Of a stretch of DNA of 27,903 nt, positions 4,333 through 22,146 are shown piece by piece. The position numbers and the translations under genes were made by a program. This stretch comes from Polyangium sp. 6x1 (GTDB lineage Bacteria; Myxococcota_A; Polyangia; Polyangiales; Polyangiaceae). The notes under the pieces were generated by a model. That model did not search any database, was not told the origin of the DNA, and worked only from the letters and a program-made list of their open reading frames with translations. The stretch lies in NCBI RefSeq assembly GCF_029946515.1, contig NZ_JARZHH010000040.1, forward strand, positions 1-27,903, given 5' to 3'. Each line of letters starts with the position of its first letter. The first letter of the stretch is position 1.

Positions 4333-4380
4333 GGATCCGGGCTTCCCGTTCAGGGACAGCGCGATCCGCCATGCGACGGC

Positions 4381-4423
4381 GGCAGGGGCGAACGTCCCTG
4401 CCGCGCGTCGAGTTTTGTCTTTG
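4381..4423 (+). terminator. rplL–rpoB intergenic hairpin plus T-rich tract (attenuator candidate)
   Basis: GGCAGGG-gcgaacgt-CCCTGCC (4381-4402) is followed by cgcgcgtcgagTTTTgtcTTT. Lies within the 272-nt rplL–rpoB spacer, the position of the known partial terminator in E. coli. Confidence 0.4.
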
Positions 4424-4604
4424 GGGGGTTTGCTGCTGCGTCTGTCGCGTGTTTCGGGCGCGTCTTCCAGGTCGCGGTAGCGCAGCCGAGTTTGTCCGTC
4501 GCCGGGACCTTTGATGGCTGTTTCGTAGCTTCGAGGCTGATGCTCGGTTCGTGGAGCGCGCGGGGATCGAGCCCTGTGCACCCGTAGGAGCCGGAGGAAT
4601 ATCG

Positions 4605-8732
<4,128 letters not shown>

Positions 8733-8738
8733 TGCCGA

Positions 8739-13070
<4,332 letters not shown>

Positions 13071-13122
13071 GGTGCAGGGGAGGGGGGCCGTCGTCGCTGA
13101 CGGCCTCCTGACCCCTCGACGC

Positions 13123-13165
13123 ACGCCCGCCCTGTCTTCAGGCGCGGGCGTGTGTTCTTTTGTTC
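13123..13165 (+). terminator. Rho-independent terminator downstream of rpoC
   Basis: ACGCCCGC-cctgtcttcaggc-GCGGGCGT hairpin (13123-13151) is followed by gtgTTCTTTTGTTc. Confidence 0.55.
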
Positions 13166-13267
13166 GGCCAGGCACGCGCCGTCTCCTGCCGATCCGCCGG
13201 ATGGCTGCTGCTTCGCGGGTCTTGGGATCCCCCGTCGTTGCGGACATGTACTATCTCTGCACTCGCG

Positions 13268-17138: not shown

Positions 17139-18080
17139 ATGTACGGTCCCAAAGGTCAGAGCAGCGGCGGTGGACGACCGCCTGCGGCCCCGAAGAAAGT
17201 CACCGTCCCGGACATCCGCGCGCGCAAGGCGGGTGGGCCGCCGATCGCGATGGTGACGGCCTACGACTTCACGATGGCGCGCCTCCTCGACGAGGGCGGC
17301 GCGGACATGCTGCTCGTCGGCGATTCGCTCGGCATGGTCGTGCAGGGGCATCCGACGACGCTGCCGGTGACGGTCGAGGAGATCTGTTACCACGGCCGTG
17401 CGGTCGCGCGCGGGGCGCGGCGCGCGCATGTGGTCGGGGACATGCCGTTCATGAGCTTCCAGGTCTCGGCCATGCAGGCGCTGGAGAACGCGGGCCGCAT
17501 GATGAAGGACGGCGCGTTCGAGAGCGTGAAGCTCGAAGGCGGCGAGGAGATCGCCGAGCACGTGCGCCGCATCGTCGCGGCGGGCATCCCTGTGTGTGGG
17601 CACATCGGGCTCACGCCGCAATCGGTGCACGCGATGGGCGGCTTCAAGGTGCAGGGCAAGGGCGAGGAGAACGCGGCGCGGCTCGTGCGGGACGCGCAGG
17701 CGCTCGACGAGGCCGGCGCCTACGCGATCGTGCTCGAAGCGATCCCGCCGGATCTCGCGGAGGAGATCACGGCGGCCGTATCTGTCCCGACGATCGGGAT
17801 TGGCGCGGGCGCGGGGTGTGATGGGCAGGTGCTCGTCTGTTACGACATGCTCGGCATGTACCCGGATCTGCGCCCGCGCTTCGCGAAGCGTTTCTCCGAG
17901 GTGGGCGAGCAGATCATGGCGGCGACGCGGGCGTACGTGGACGAGGTGCAAGCGCGCACGTTCCCCGGCGCCGAGCACAGCTTCAAGCCGAACGGCCCGC
18001 GCCGCATCACGCCGCCGGCCGAGCCTGCTGCTGCGGTGCTGGAGCTGGAGGAGATTCCTCCGCACTGGCAGACGCATTGA
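17139..18080 (+). CDS. panB: 3-methyl-2-oxobutanoate hydroxymethyltransferase (ketopantoate hydroxymethyltransferase)
   Basis: 313 aa, IAMVTAYDFTMARLLDEGGADMLLVGDSLGMVVQGH…VKLEGG…GIPVCGHIGLTPQSVHAMGGFKVQGKG. PanB family with a C-terminal extension. RBS GGAGGA 5 nt upstream of the ATG. Confidence 0.9.
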   Translation: MYGPKGQSSGGGRPPAAPKKVTVPDIRARKAGGPPIAMVTAYDFTMARLLDEGGADMLLVGDSLGMVVQGHPTTLPVTVEEICYHGRAVARGARRAHVVGDMPFMSFQVSAMQALENAGRMMKDGAFESVKLEGGEEIAEHVRRIVAAGIPVCGHIGLTPQSVHAMGGFKVQGKGEENAARLVRDAQALDEAGAYAIVLEAIPPDLAEEITAAVSVPTIGIGAGAGCDGQVLVCYDMLGMYPDLRPRFAKRFSEVGEQIMAATRAYVDEVQARTFPGAEHSFKPNGPRRITPPAEPAAAVLELEEIPPHWQTH

Positions 18081-18093
18081 GCTTCGAGGGCGA

Positions 18094-18115
18094 GGGCGGG
18101 CCCGCGAGCCCGCCC
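18094..18115. terminator. GC-rich hairpin between convergent panB (+) and the Cys-rich lipoprotein gene (-); likely bidirectional terminator
   Basis: GGGCGGGC-ccgcga-GCCCGCCC, a perfect 8-bp stem, in the 48-nt convergent spacer. An adjacent hairpin GCATCAA-ttgcag-TTGATGC (18125-18144) spans the minus-strand stop codon. Confidence 0.45.
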
Positions 18116-18128
18116 CGCGCCTTCGGCA

Positions 18129-19142
18129 TCAATTGCAGTTGATGCCGCAGATGAGCTCCACCTCGCCCACGCAGATGCCGTCCCAGCTCTGCTCGCAGCA
18201 ATAAGGATCGGCCTTGCAAACGGCCGCGGCGCACGGGTTGCACGTCGGATCCAGCGCGCCGCCGTTTCCCTGGCAGATCGAGTGCGCGCAGTTGCAGCTC
18301 ACGCCGCACTTCATCGTGGCCGCGTCCACGCAGGCCTGGTTCCAGCCCGTCGTGCAGCACTCGGGCTGATCCATGCACACCGACGTGATGCACGGATCCG
18401 CGCCGCAGATCATGTCCGCGAGGTAGGAGCAGGCTCCGTTCCACGGCGCGCTCGAGTTCATGCCGCAGCAGTTCGCGTCCTGCATGCACACCTCGTCCAC
18501 GCAAGACGCGCGGCAGACGTCCGGATCGAGCGCCTCGCCCGTGCCGCAGACCGAGTGCGGGCACTCCGCGCAGGGCCCGCAATCCTCGGCGCACGAGCCA
18601 CAATCCTCGCCGCCGTTGCACGCGCCGTCGCCGCAGAAGCAGGCGCCGCAGTCGTTCGGGCACGTGTCGCACGTCTCGCCGTTGCACTCGCCGTTGCCGC
18701 AGCAGCCGGCGTTGCAGAGCTGATCGGCGAGCGCGACGCAGTTGCCGCCCCAGAATCCGTCGCAACACCCAGCGCCGTTCTGCGACCCGCAGACCTGCGC
18801 GACGCAGGAATTGCAGCCGTCCGTGAGCGGGTCCCCGACGGTGCAGACCGCGTGCTGGCAGACGTCGCCGCCGCCCGATGAGGACGAGGAGGACGACGAC
18901 GACGACGACGAAGACGAGGACGAGGACGAGGACGCGCTTGAGCTCGATGCGCTCGACGAGGACGACGAGGACGACGAGGCGGACGACGACGACGCGCTCA
19001 TGCCGCCCATGCCGCCGCTTCCGCCTGCGCCGCCGTCACCGCCCGCGCCGGCGTTGTTTCGCGTGCCGAAGAGGTCCCTGCCGTCGGCGGTACACCCGGC
19101 CGCGGCAAGCGCGGCGATCGCAAGCAAGCACGTGAATCGCAT
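18129..19142 (-). CDS. Secreted cysteine-rich lipoprotein with a ~40-residue poly-Ser tract and four repeats of a ~50-aa 8-Cys module
   Basis: Start ATG 19142 ([17 protein letters not shown]; lipobox AAGC) with RBS AGGAG 7 nt upstream; the track start at 19160 is an in-frame TTG. Has a poly-Ser tract; four modules of the type C..S.C..G.ALDP.C..C...VC..D..CC...W...C......C; and a central [37 protein letters not shown] segment resembling the Myxococcus cysteine-rich repeat. Confidence 0.75.
   Translation of the reverse strand: [337 protein letters not shown]
18877..18992. repeat. Imperfect trinucleotide tract (GAC/GAG/GAA)n on the + strand, i.e. (TCN)n poly-Ser codons on the - strand
   Basis: ~115 nt of gaggacgaggaggacgacgacgacgacgacgaagacgaggacgag..., encoding [40 protein letters not shown] in the minus-strand lipoprotein. 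Confidence 0.8.
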
Positions 19143-19180
19143 GTCCCCACTCCTGGGCAAGGACGCGATGCTAACGCGGT

Positions 19181-21214
19181 TCAGGCCGGCGTGGACGCCG
19201 AACCCTCGCGCTTTTGCCCCACCGCGCGCAGGAACAGCTCCAGCACGGCGAGGCCGAGCAGCCCGAGCGCGACGTACGGCGACGCGTCAATCGAGGGAAC
19301 GACCCCGCCGAGCTCCTCGGCGCGCGCCGCGTCGATCACGCGCCGCGGACGCAGATCGATCTCGCGCTCGGGCACGGTCGCGACGCGGATCGCGCGCTCG
19401 CCGTCGAGGCGCACCTCGTACCTGCCCTGGACTGGCGCCACGGCGCGGCGACGGCCGTCCTGCTCCACGACCGGGATCGGCCGGCGCGCCTCGCCCGCGC
19501 GCACGGGCAGCCGCTCGATCGCGACGTCCTTGAACCCGTCGAACGTGAACGCGTCGCCGACGTCGATCTGCCGCGCCCCGCCTCGCGCCCGCGCCGTCCC
19601 GACGAACCGGTCGAGCAGCGCCAGGAAGGCGGGCCGGAGGACGAAGTCGCTCTCGTCCACGGTGAGCGGCAAGGACAGCGCGAAGACGGCGCCCCGGCCG
19701 AGTGAGCGGCGCAGGAGCAGGGGCGCGCCGTCGTCCCACCGCGCGAGCACGTCCGCGTTCGTCGCGGCGGCCGGGTCGAAGGACGCGCGCCCGTCGGGCG
19801 AGAGTTTTCCCAGGCCCTCCGCGCTCGGCCCGAAGAACACCGCGCTCGTGAGATCGGCGCCCGGGGACGGGCTCGGCCCCCAGCGCACCACGCCTGGCAC
19901 GAGCGGGTCGAATCCTGCGCCGAGCGGGGCCGTCGCCGCGCGCGGGCCGAACGTCAAGAGCAGCACGCCCCCTCGCTCGACCCACGCCGACAGCGAACGC
20001 CGTCCCTCCGGCGTGAAGCCCGGCACGTCGTCGACGATGAGCCCCGCGAATGCAGCGAGCTCGTCCGTGTGGTCCGGCACCGCGGGCAGCGGCCGCACCT
20101 CCGCGTCGAGGTGCATCGCCGCGAGGGCCTGCTCGATCGGCGGCGGCCCGCCCGTGGCCACGTGCGTCGAGGCCACGTCCACCACGACCGCGATCGGCAG
20201 CGCCCCGCCGGCCGGCACCACCGGCGCCTCGTCGTCCTCGAGGATCGCGTCGCCCGGCGTCAGCCCGACGATCAGCTCCTCCGGCGCGCCTTCCGGCACG
20301 TCGAGCGCGATCTCCTCGGCGCGGATCGCGGGCCCGAGCGGCGCCGACGCGAGCACCTTGCCCCCGGCGCGCAGCTCCACCGCCCGCCCGACCGAGGCCG
20401 AGATCACGGCCGCGCCCTCGCCTGCCGGCCGCGCCTCGGGGCTGCACACGACACGCGCTCGCACCTTGCCCGAGCGCAGATCCGCGCGCGTCACCGCGCA
20501 ATCGCGGCCCGAGGCTTCGAGCTCCGGCAGCGGCACCCACAGCGTCGTGTCCGAGCCGCCGCCGAGGGGCGTCGCGTTCGGCGTCCCGTCCGCGAGGTCG
20601 CTGAGCAGCACCACGCGCCGATCGGTGTGCGGCACGCTGCGCAAGAGCTCCCGCGCAAGCGTCAGCGCCCCTTCCAGATCGGTCGCGCGATCGGACGGCT
20701 CGATCGCGTCGAGCGCGCCCGTCACGGCTGCCATGTTCGTCGTCGACGCGAGCGCCACGCGCGCCGGCGCGCCCCCGAGGACCACGGCCACCGCGTCGCC
20801 GCTGCGCAGGCCCGTGGCGAGCTCCCGCGCCGACGCGAGGGCCCGCTCGAACTTCGTCCGCTTGCCCGGCCCGCCCGTCCCGCCTTCCAGCGGCGCGCGC
20901 ATGCTCAGCGAGTCGTCGATCACGATCGCGAGCGCCACCGAGGCCCCGTCCTTCCGCGACAGCCCGAGCCGCGCGCACCGCACGAAGGGCGTCGCGCCGA
21001 GCACCGCGAGCATCAGCACGCTGAGCGCTCGCACCGCGAAGAGCGAGCGATCCTCCAGCATGCTCCGCCGCCGGGCCATGGGCTTCGTCGGCGGCACGAG
21101 CTTCGCGGGGGGGAAGGGTTGCTCCTCGGCTTGCCTTCGCCGCAGCAGGTGCGCCGCGACCGGGGCGCCGACGAGCAGCGCCACGAGCAGCGCGGCGAGC
21201 GTGGCGAAGCTCAT
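19181..21214 (-). CDS. BatA-like membrane protein: N-terminal TM/'HLLRRR' aerotolerance-regulator N-domain, vWA (MIDAS) domain, long C-terminal region, C-terminal TM helix
   Basis: 677 aa from ATG 21214: MSFATLAALLVALLVGAPVAAHLLRRRQAEEQPF (BatA_N pattern). vWA: SVALAIVIDDSLSM…VVLLSDLADGT. C-terminal hydrophobic YVALGLLGLAVLELFL. Its ATG overlaps the DUF58 stop (ATGA). The upstream 330 codons of the 1007-aa track ORF are Arg/Gly junk read out of frame across the DUF58 gene. Confidence 0.75.
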   Translation of the reverse strand: MSFATLAALLVALLVGAPVAAHLLRRRQAEEQPFPPAKLVPPTKPMARRRSMLEDRSLFAVRALSVLMLAVLGATPFVRCARLGLSRKDGASVALAIVIDDSLSMRAPLEGGTGGPGKRTKFERALASARELATGLRSGDAVAVVLGGAPARVALASTTNMAAVTGALDAIEPSDRATDLEGALTLARELLRSVPHTDRRVVLLSDLADGTPNATPLGGGSDTTLWVPLPELEASGRDCAVTRADLRSGKVRARVVCSPEARPAGEGAAVISASVGRAVELRAGGKVLASAPLGPAIRAEEIALDVPEGAPEELIVGLTPGDAILEDDEAPVVPAGGALPIAVVVDVASTHVATGGPPPIEQALAAMHLDAEVRPLPAVPDHTDELAAFAGLIVDDVPGFTPEGRRSLSAWVERGGVLLLTFGPRAATAPLGAGFDPLVPGVVRWGPSPSPGADLTSAVFFGPSAEGLGKLSPDGRASFDPAAATNADVLARWDDGAPLLLRRSLGRGAVFALSLPLTVDESDFVLRPAFLALLDRFVGTARARGGARQIDVGDAFTFDGFKDVAIERLPVRAGEARRPIPVVEQDGRRRAVAPVQGRYEVRLDGERAIRVATVPEREIDLRPRRVIDAARAEELGGVVPSIDASPYVALGLLGLAVLELFLRAVGQKREGSASTPA

Positions 21215-22146
21215 GCCCGCGCCTCGGCCACGGCGCGCACCACCTCGCGCACCACGTCGGCGGGGGGTCGGTCCGTGACCGCCTCGACCCAGCGACCGCC
21301 CCGCGCGGACAGCTCCTTCGACCAGCGCTCGGCGATCCCGGCGAGCCGCTCGCGGTAGACGGCGCGCACCTCCTCGGCGTCCGTCTCGACGACCACGTCG
21401 CCCTCGCTCGCGCGGAGCCGCACGTGCCCGGAGAAACCGAGATCCGCCTCGTTTGGATCGAGCACCCGGAGCGCCACGAGCGATCGCCCGCCGGCCCCGA
21501 GCGCCGTGAACGCCGAGAGCGCCCTCTCTGGCAGGTCCACGAAATCGCTCACCAGCACGATCACCGCGCCTCGCCGCGCGCGCCGCGCCACGGGGGCGAG
21601 GGCGCGCTCCATGGCCCCGTCGTCCGTGCTCGCGTCGCCTGCGGCCGCGGCCCCTTCGAGCGCCCCTGCGACCCTGTCGAACGCCTCGCGCCCGCTCGAC
21701 GCCGGCAGCGGCAGCGTCCCCCGCCCGCCGAGCCACGCGAGCCCCACGGGATCGCCCGTCGAGAGCGCCACGCGCGCGAGCGCCGCGGCCACGAGCGCCC
21801 CGTACGCGAGCTTTGCGCCTGGGGCCCGCTGGCTCCGGTAGGCCATCGACGCCGTCGCGTCCACGCAGAGCCACAGCGCGCGATCCGTCTCCGTCTCGAA
21901 CTCGCGCACCATCATCCGGTCGTGCCGCAGCAGCGCGCGCCGGTCGAAGAACCTGAGATCGTCGCCGGGCACGTAGGGCCTGTGCCCTCCGAACTCCACG
22001 CCGGGGCCTTTGCGTACGCTCCGATGCCCGCCTGCGTATACGCCTTCGGCCAGCGTCCGGGCTCGCAGGCGCAGCGGCGCGAGGCTCCCCCAGTCGATGG
22101 GGATCCCGTCCTTTCCGGAGCGCGACGAGGGGCGAAGCTCGGCCAT
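21211..22146 (-). CDS. DUF58-family protein (MoxR/Bat-operon-associated, vWA-like)
   Basis: 311 aa, GVEFGGHRPYVPGDDLRFFDRRALLRHDRMMVREFETETDRALWLCVDATASM matches the DUF58 core motif. Translationally coupled to the downstream BatA-like gene. Confidence 0.75.
   Translation of the reverse strand: MAELRPSSRSGKDGIPIDWGSLAPLRLRARTLAEGVYAGGHRSVRKGPGVEFGGHRPYVPGDDLRFFDRRALLRHDRMMVREFETETDRALWLCVDATASMAYRSQRAPGAKLAYGALVAAALARVALSTGDPVGLAWLGGRGTLPLPASSGREAFDRVAGALEGAAAAGDASTDDGAMERALAPVARRARRGAVIVLVSDFVDLPERALSAFTALGAGGRSLVALRVLDPNEADLGFSGHVRLRASEGDVVVETDAEEVRAVYRERLAGIAERWSKELSARGGRWVEAVTDRPPADVVREVVRAVAEARA

Follow-up and report, generated by a model that had tools for sequence, protein, structure and literature searches.

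Cys-rich tandem repeats are known from myxobacterial proteins of the envelope and the secretome. One of them, the myxobacterial disulfide repeat TIGR02232, is ~38 amino acids long with a CDDGN...DGC core. In TraA of Myxococcus xanthus a Cys-rich region of TIGR04201 repeats has been proposed to form a disulfide-bonded rigid stalk on a surface receptor, and the same authors proposed that the MYXO-CTERM of this protein works like a glycosylphosphatidylinositol site for cell-surface anchoring (PMC3325183). Work on the lipoproteins of M. xanthus has associated Lys at position +2 with the inner membrane and Ala at position +7 with the matrix, and an Ala to Asp change at +7 was found to keep the lipoprotein FibA in the outer membrane (PMC3222651). 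The subject of the present work is a gene on the minus strand of a 27,903-nucleotide stretch of DNA from Polyangium sp. 6x1 (contig NZ_JARZHH010000040.1, positions 1 to 27,903), the whole of which is referred to here as the window. Its product is a Cys-rich protein of the lipoprotein type and is an ordinary member of the known but uncharacterised DUF8252 family, not a new kind of protein. Function can only be inferred, and we give a probability of about 0.45 to the reading that it is an outer-membrane lipoprotein in which a disordered tether presents a non-catalytic binding head stapled by disulfides. The gene and the features of the N-terminal part of its product are as follows.

18129..19142, minus strand: coding sequence of the 337-amino-acid Cys-rich lipoprotein, stop codon at 18129-18131 (from the list of open reading frames, the sequence and the homologues)
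19150..19154, minus strand: AGGAG ribosome-binding motif, 7 nucleotides upstream of the ATG at 19142 (read from the sequence)
19092..19142, minus strand: predicted signal peptide and lipobox, the Cys to be lipidated being residue 17
18861..19091, minus strand: low-complexity Gly/Ser tether of 77 amino acids (residues 18-94), 49% Ser and 21% Gly
19065-19076, minus strand: DLFG motif (residues 23-26), near the start of the tether
18876..18998, minus strand: Ser/Ala tract of 41 residues, 37 of them Ser; its DNA is an imperfect trinucleotide repeat

The minus-strand open reading frame (ORF) covers 18129..19160 (343 amino acids) if it is opened at a TTG at 19160. The ATG at 19142, which was the start chosen in a preliminary description of this DNA, appears the more credible of the two because AGGAG lies 7 nucleotides upstream and because the closest orthologues start, with MRIT or MRFT, in the same place. 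Residue numbers throughout refer to the 337-amino-acid product of this ATG. There are 50 Cys in the 343-amino-acid ORF, 49 in the 321 mature residues, in agreement with an earlier count of about 50, and 48 in the C-terminal 243 residues, which form the head and are 19% Cys.

With a G+C content of 63 to 77% in the window, ORFs that overlap on the two strands are to be expected as noise, and many of them are present here. This could favour the view that the reading frame is a chance long ORF in 69% G+C DNA and no gene at all, a view whose probability is practically negligible. A search of 5.8 billion proteins recovered 48 relatives, and in an alignment of 23 sequences all 48 Cys of the head are invariant, as is the His that follows the first Cys of each complete module. 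The ribosome-binding site and the lipobox are both present, and the position of the gene is syntenic across several Polyangiaceae genomes. In a comparison with five Polyangium orthologues, third codon positions carry differences about twice as often, and the stop codon is conserved. Codon changes divide about equally into synonymous and non-synonymous ones, which points to purifying selection. A spurious ORF was rejected on these conservation data, and the ORF is a real, conserved Polyangium gene.

Three complete modules of 10 Cys each make up the head, together with a truncated copy and two CGxGxC repeats. Matches given below were obtained with a module hidden Markov model (HMM) that was built from the modules of relatives annotated with PF26780, the Pfam entry of DUF8252, without the window's own copies.

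18702..18860, minus strand: DUF8252 copy 1, residues 95-147, 10 Cys (HMM 50.7 bits, profile positions 1-51; predicted local distance difference test score, pLDDT, above 90 in the head model)
18570..18701, minus strand: two tandem 22-amino-acid, 6-Cys CG[ND]GxC repeats, residues 148-169 and 170-191 (regular expression and sequence)
18390..18563, minus strand: DUF8252 copy 2, residues 194-251, 10 Cys, with insertions (HMM match to residues 194-248, 36.9 bits, profile positions 1-49)
18294..18392, minus strand: truncated DUF8252 copy 3, residues 251-283 (HMM match to residues 248-283, 30.2 bits, profile positions 16-51)
18135..18290, minus strand: DUF8252 copy 4, residues 285-336, 10 Cys, nearest of all to the canonical module (HMM match of 68.8 bits, profile positions 1-51; pLDDT 94.1 in a single-module model)

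Copy 3 corresponds to the C-terminal two thirds of the module and has six Cys of its own, Cys251 being common to copies 2 and 3; the truncated copy is conserved in all family members. The Cys of the head add up as 10 + 12 + 10 + 6 + 10 = 48, an even number. The module has the consensus CxHxxCxxGxxLxxxCDxCVxxVCxxDPxCCxxxWDxxCVxxxxxxCGxxC, with the spacing C-x-H-x2-C-x2-G-x2-L-x3-C-x2-C-x4-C-x5-CC-x3-W-D-x2-C-x7-C-x3-C, and all pairs of modules score well above composition-preserving shuffles (z = 4.5-9.9). The preliminary description had proposed four copies of an 8-Cys module, and the fourfold repeat is upheld by both the HMM and the shuffles; each module has ten Cys and not eight, however, and the four copies resolve into three complete modules and one truncated one.

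Membership of the DUF8252 family is indicated indirectly, by the annotation of relatives and by the four HMM matches of 30-69 bits. The copy of Pfam that was scanned predates PF26780, so that the window protein had no direct match there; this copy and NCBIfam returned only noise, whether they were scanned with the whole protein, with the head or with single segments. A precomputed PF26780 match is present on 42 of the 48 relatives, including the closest, a hypothetical protein of Polyangium sp. y55x31 (P0001) that is colinear with the window protein and 90% identical to it. The Polyangium aurulentum protein (P0005) is 62% identical, and a genome scan added matches in P. jinanense (88%), Polyangium sp. 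15x6 (88%) and P. fumosum (83%). Partial relatives show which part of the head is covered by the annotation: PF26780 is present on those with the module only (P0038, P0040, P0042 and P0047) and is missing from those with CGxGxC repeats only (P0041 and P0043-P0046), and PF26780 therefore covers the module and not the CGxGxC repeats. P0048 is also without PF26780, though a strict CGxGxC regular expression found no copy there. The module of the PF26780 proteins P0001, P0005 and Haliangium ochraceum Hoch_6539 (P0334, a longer form of P0049) is the same as that of the window protein. By sequence comparison, then, the head module is identified as DUF8252, already catalogued under a label with no function attached. 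The earlier remark that the module was not recognised as a named domain holds in so far as no EGF, laminin or toxin model matches it, and fails in that the label PF26780/DUF8252 exists.

The Polyangiaceae orthologues share with the window protein a colinear arrangement of lipobox, tether, module, CGxGxC repeats, module, truncated module and module, and nothing of substance differs between them. In a regular-expression survey the order module, CGxGxC repeats, module, truncated module, module was recovered in almost every full-length member, and across the family the DUF8252 copies vary neither in order nor in number.

Modelling of the repeat module with AlphaFold had been suggested in the preliminary description, and a model of a single module, computed from 30 aligned instances, proved confident (pLDDT 94.1), with a short beta-hairpin and three short helices. 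Foldseek returned 0 matches to this model in the PDB, and a search of PDB sequences with the module profile gave nothing significant (best E = 9.1). For EGF, laminin, toxin-repeat, granulin, metallothionein and other named Cys-rich domains there was no match above noise in Pfam, in NCBIfam or by fold in the PDB; EGF, laminin and toxin repeats were rejected because no Pfam or NCBIfam model matches. The AlphaFold2 model of the whole head, made with the family alignment, has a mean pLDDT of 83 and a predicted template modelling score (pTM) of 0.52, with the modules at 90-96 and the central repeats at 66-73. These values fit well-folded beads with a loose mutual geometry.

Conservation over 402 full-length module instances extends beyond the Cys, with H3 at 99%, G9 at 98%, L12 at 93% and W35 at 99%. 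Among the same instances, where C5 is lost C7 is gone too in 21 of 23 cases, and where C3 is lost C1 is also gone in 7 of 9. Such pairwise co-loss leads us to read C5-C7 and C1-C3 as disulfide partners, from sequence only. A variant lacking C5, and nearly always C7 with it, is exemplified by P0067: CAAEVIKRDSYCQFSYWD. It is most likely that the head is fully disulfide-bonded, with ~24 predicted disulfides; these are preferred to free thiols because of the pairwise co-loss, the even number of Cys, the export signal and a thioredoxin-fold neighbour of the P0009 gene (see below).

The pair of repeats in the centre of the head, CG[ND]GxCNGxExCxxCxxDCGxC, had been likened to TIGR02232 in the preliminary description, and this identification was rejected. 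At a model cutoff of 20.8 bits, TIGR02232 gave no match at E <= 10 for the protein, the head, the 46-amino-acid segment or this segment triplicated, while a synthetic consensus scored 144.7 bits in the same run as a positive control. Membership of DUF4215 and of TIGR04201 was likewise rejected for want of an HMM match: PF13948 (DUF4215), a model present in the library since it matched another protein, gave none at E <= 10, and neither did TIGR04201 in NCBIfam, in a run made without a positive control. A search with eight repeats from a Sorangium protein recovered at least 439 proteins at E <= 1e-6. The named sources of these are Sorangium, Myxococcus, Cystobacter, Polyangiaceae and Myxococcota, all of them myxobacterial. 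Nearly all proteins of this CGxGxC family have no Pfam domain recorded, and P0041 has no NCBIfam match either. On the sequence comparisons, the 22-amino-acid CGxGxC unit appears to be a genuine repeat without a model in the Pfam and NCBIfam versions tested, and is a candidate for a new one. Members with the form CGDGxCxxxExCxxCxxDCGxC are seen at 18570-18701 of the window and in P0041, P0043-P0046 and P0212-P0329. Orthologues differ in how many copies they have: none, a partial one or as many as three in the central position, and up to five before module 1. This variability suits the role of a spacer.

At the N-terminus of the precursor a positively charged stretch is followed by a hydrophobic core and then by the lipobox LAAAGC, which ends in Cys17. 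These are the features of a substrate of signal peptidase II, namely a charged N-region, a hydrophobic core and a lipobox of the form [LVI/A][ASTVI][GAS]-C within the first ~35 residues. A lipobox-type [AGS]-C is present in 22 of 22 aligned full-length homologues. The sequence thus supports a lipoprotein-type precursor, as had been proposed, and we infer that Cys17 would be lipidated in the cell. At the sorting positions the protein has Thr at +2 and Asp at +7, and by analogy with the rules established in M. xanthus, extrapolated across suborders, the most likely destination is the outer membrane.

The Cys of the lipobox is followed in all 22 full-length homologues by a low-complexity linker of 39-93 residues. 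Its composition is variable (Ser 2-49%, Thr 2-37%, Gly 18-46%), and what is conserved is therefore a disordered tether and not poly-Ser as such. The tract of about 40 Ser and the stalk that had been proposed from it are thus both recognisable in the window protein, the first as 41 residues with 37 Ser and the second as a conserved tether, while the poly-Ser character of the stalk is not a family trait. The DNA of the tract is a repeat of period 3 with 37 copies (Tandem Repeats Finder). On the opposite strand an ORF at 18742-19533 (plus strand) turns the tract into a run of Asp and Glu (DEDEEDDDDDDEDEDEDED); this ORF is a mirror artefact of the trinucleotide repeat and not a gene. O-glycosylation of the Ser residues would be pure speculation. 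Most members of the family have a (D/E)-x-[LVMY]-F-G motif 6-10 residues past the Cys to be lipidated, in a tether that is otherwise unconserved. The DLFG of the window protein and its counterparts could be a sorting or docking signal.

The free variation of CGxGxC copy number and of linker length and composition among orthologues, together with the loose geometry between modules (pTM 0.52), would also be expected of a purely structural component of the envelope or matrix, in which protease-resistant beads serve as spacer or filler without a specific ligand. A housekeeping role of this sort is suggested, too, by the conserved position of the gene beside panB/rpoC in Polyangiaceae. Conservation of residues other than Cys over the 402 instances and in distant taxa (H 99%, W 99%, G 98%, L 93%) argues against such an inert filler, as does the fixed order and number of the DUF8252 copies across the family, and Asp at +7 argues, under the M. 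xanthus rule, against export to the matrix. We regard a purely structural role as rather unlikely.

Evidence for a binding role comes from the distribution of the module. A search of 1.84 billion cluster representatives with the module profile gave 3139 proteins at E <= 1e-3 and 1294 at E <= 1e-10, the 3139 being clusters at 50% identity, with 1 to 33 matched stretches per protein. Many of the 150 matches listed open with a signal peptide or lipobox of the type seen in high-G+C bacteria. Few matches carry names, and the named sources are Haliangium ochraceum, metagenome-assembled genomes (MAGs) of Myxococcales and Deltaproteobacteria, a Phycisphaerales MAG and the chytrid Blyttiomyces. DUF8252 is thus spread over Myxococcota, Planctomycetota and chytrid fungi. 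The Phycisphaerales protein (P0083) has 17 matched stretches, most of which cover part of the profile only. Two proteins of Blyttiomyces sp. JEL0837 (P0054 and P0155; KAJ3326400.1 and KAJ3290336.1) carry modules together with signal peptides of eukaryotic type and are rich in Thr, Ser, Lys and Ile. Their composition looks truly eukaryotic, an indication that the module is distributed across kingdoms or has been transferred horizontally. A variant module, which in P0040 has the form CC-x-P-H…PGC-x-D-x2-C-x3-VC-x2-DPFCC-x3-WD…, occurs in 7-33 copies in proteins of ~400-2400 amino acids; its carriers are P0040, P0050, P0058, P0065 and P0083, and the sole named source among them is a Planctomycetota MAG.

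When 59 of the matches were scanned with Pfam most had no other domain. In the remainder the partner domains were Phosphoesterase, VWA, Peptidase_C1, Kelch, Lectin_C, Trypsin, chagasin, LTD, CBM96, InhA-like MAM, DUF4215 and DUF7305, with no glycoside hydrolase among the partner domains scanned. Trypsin is followed by two C-terminal modules in P0162; Phosphoesterase occurs with two modules in P0164 and P0194; chagasin precedes papain (Peptidase_C1) in P0193, with two modules downstream; and fusions to LTD and to InhA-like MAM are found in P0169 and P0176, respectively. DUF8252 therefore behaves as a promiscuous extracytoplasmic accessory module.

The occurrence of the module with trypsin, and with papain and a chagasin inhibitor domain, raises the possibility that the head is a tethered protease inhibitor or decoy, of Kazal type or similar, which shields the envelope from the cell's own secreted proteases or from foreign ones. 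Tandem disulfide-rich units of ~50 amino acids without a catalytic domain would be compatible with this. However, the module is found with phosphoesterases and with LTD, lectin, VWA, Kelch and CBM96 domains as well; no inhibitor family matches the protein by sequence or the module by fold; and there is no evident variable loop resembling a reactive site, the conserved residues being H, G, L, W and D. An inhibitor is accordingly very unlikely.

A non-catalytic binding role is preferred because no catalytic domain was recognised in the protein by the Pfam and NCBIfam scans and because DUF8252 is an accessory module of secreted enzymes, lectins and VWA proteins. On this proposal the precursor would leave the cytoplasm through Sec, receive its lipid on Cys17 and be cut by signal peptidase II, and would be sorted to the outer membrane if the M. 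xanthus rules apply by analogy. There the disordered tether of 77 residues would hold out the 243-residue head, a putative string of small, independently folded, disulfide-stapled units with the two CGxGxC repeats as a spacer. This head, multivalent and of adhesin or receptor type, would bind an extracellular ligand such as a component of the matrix, of a prey envelope or of a partner protein. A more far-reaching proposal is possible but doubtful: that DUF8252 is a new disulfide-rich fold which serves the myxobacterial secretome at large for targeting or binding, that the lipoprotein is a multivalent surface adhesin, and that the invariant His/Trp pair is the ligand site. The targets of such an adhesin may be, for example, prey envelopes or matrix polymers.

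Several points weigh against the reading of the protein as a lipid-anchored binding head. The M. xanthus sorting rules derive from another suborder, and the head may be surface-exposed or may face the periplasm. The connectivity of the disulfides is suggested by the statistics of Cys co-loss and not by model coordinates. Most of the scanned DUF8252 proteins have no other recognisable domain, so that the enzyme-appended pattern is that of a minority, and as the partner enzymes are not glycoside hydrolases carbohydrate binding has no particular support. Ligand, phenotype and experimental datum are absent for any DUF8252 protein, and no paper in the library searched mentions PF26780 or DUF8252. 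The binding reading is nevertheless ranked above a structural spacer, an inhibitor and the redox or metal buffer that is suggested by the neighbouring genes. The surroundings of the gene in the window are as follows.

21211-22146, minus strand: DUF58 gene (Pfam match), upstream on the same strand
19181-21214, minus strand: BatA/VWA_2 gene (Pfam match), its stop 38 nucleotides before the ATG of the lipoprotein gene
18089..18122, no strand assigned: GC-rich hairpin in the 48-nucleotide spacer between the convergent stops of the lipoprotein gene and panB (fold energy)
17139-18080: panB, convergent with the lipoprotein gene

In other genomes the surroundings of the orthologous gene are these.

Polyangium sp. 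y55x31, P. aurulentum and P0003: arrangement as in the window
P0029: two genes between BatA and the lipoprotein gene
P0007: BatA absent, panB still adjacent
P0015: BatA absent, a collagen-repeat gene upstream and Metallophos downstream
P0037: BatA absent, a Metallophos-like gene downstream
P0009: BatA absent, a thioredoxin-fold gene downstream

Because the gene lies 38 nucleotides behind DUF58 and BatA/VWA_2 on the same strand, and close behind them in Polyangium relatives as well, its product might be a periplasmic redox buffer or metal-binding lipoprotein that works with these 'aerotolerance-type' genes, its 48 thiols and the His of the modules scavenging oxidants or chelating Cu or Zn. A head that is 19% Cys, a His conserved to 99% at module position 3 and the thioredoxin-fold gene that adjoins one orthologue would all be in keeping with this. 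The linkage to BatA is lost elsewhere, however, with genes intervening in P0029 and BatA absent at P0007, P0015, P0009 and P0037. Pairwise co-loss of Cys is a signature of disulfides; the module model (pLDDT 94) has helices and a core with a conserved Trp; the module turns up in a range of secreted hydrolases, in which a redox sink would have little purpose; and no metallothionein or copper-storage model in Pfam or NCBIfam matches, for which reason a metallothionein-like protein was rejected. A buffer of this kind is distinctly unlikely. An obligatory component of a Bat operon was also rejected, as BatA is separated or absent in other contexts. The link to BatA appears to be local synteny and not a conserved functional pairing, while the location beside panB is an orthologous, housekeeping-region position within Polyangiaceae.

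The spacer hairpin has a fold energy of -36.8 kcal/mol (z = -3.55), none of 200 shuffles being as stable, and has no T-run, which is why it was passed over by a consensus terminator scan. It is probably a bidirectional terminator. One terminator-like match of the scan falls within coding sequence and was disregarded, and a promoter scan found no sigma-70-like site.

Some further observations concern these neighbourhoods. The thioredoxin-fold gene beside P0009 (L005, 6966-7388, plus strand) overlaps the stop of the P0009 gene by 4 nucleotides and encodes a 140-amino-acid lipoprotein with the lipobox LMAC and a WCPVC motif of the thioredoxin/glutaredoxin fold. This lipoprotein may serve the Cys-rich protein as its own dedicated thiol-disulfide oxidoreductase outside the cytoplasm. 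The DUF8252 genes of two distant orthologues (L003, 4562-8513, and L018, 6129-7505) are followed by a phosphoesterase gene of Metallophos type. The L003 phosphoesterase has a MYXO-CTERM-like tail (…AGCSCRLA…, a hydrophobic stretch and basic residues) and a collagen-repeat gene lies upstream, while that of L018 looks cytoplasmic; the recurrence may be coincidence. Elsewhere in the window, a 2965-amino-acid ORF at 4350-13247 (minus strand) lies antisense to plus-strand ORFs at 4551-8732 and 8739-13070. The latter are probably rpoB and rpoC, judging from their size and from an RNA-polymerase subunit gene at this position in L001, and the 2965-amino-acid ORF is a spurious long ORF in high-G+C DNA.

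The window protein adds one orthologue to a catalogued, uncharacterised family and alone changes little. The wider interest lies in DUF8252 itself, which is abundant (3139 clusters) and confidently foldable, with no solved relative and no literature found, and which in a minority of the scanned proteins is found next to hydrolases that predatory myxobacteria secrete. With the structure and the ligand of a single DUF8252 module thousands of proteins would be annotated at once, and the 22-residue CGxGxC repeat could become a model of the Pfam or NCBIfam type.

Compared with known systems, the window protein is most readily placed among the DUF8252 proteins, others of which differ from it in copy number (1 to ~33 matched stretches) and in partner domains. 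Its two central repeats are typical copies of the family represented by Sorangium sp. So ce375 WME90_45770 (P0041). Proteins of the P0041 type have 4-8 or more copies and different terminal domains, whereas the window protein has two copies as an inter-module spacer. The central repeat resembles TIGR02232 and DUF4215 in being a short Cys-rich tandem repeat of secreted myxobacterial proteins that opens with CG(D/N)G and has an acidic residue a few positions on, but differs from TIGR02232 in spacing and Cys count, the window repeat having 22 amino acids and six Cys and ending in DCGxC. TraA is likewise a myxobacterial envelope protein with Cys-rich tandem repeats, and the anchoring proposed for it resembles the lipid anchoring predicted for the window protein. 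The anchor of TraA is a C-terminal MYXO-CTERM in place of an N-terminal lipobox, and its PA14 domain and TIGR04201 repeats have no match in the window protein. TraA is a kin-recognition receptor, whereas the window protein is without evidence of polymorphism or of a recognition role. The small disulfide-rich binding modules CBM1, hevein/CBM18 and WSC are comparable to DUF8252, although DUF8252 has no likeness in sequence or fold to solved structures; like it, they are ~50 residues long with several disulfides and a conserved aromatic residue, and occur singly or in tandem beside secreted catalytic domains.

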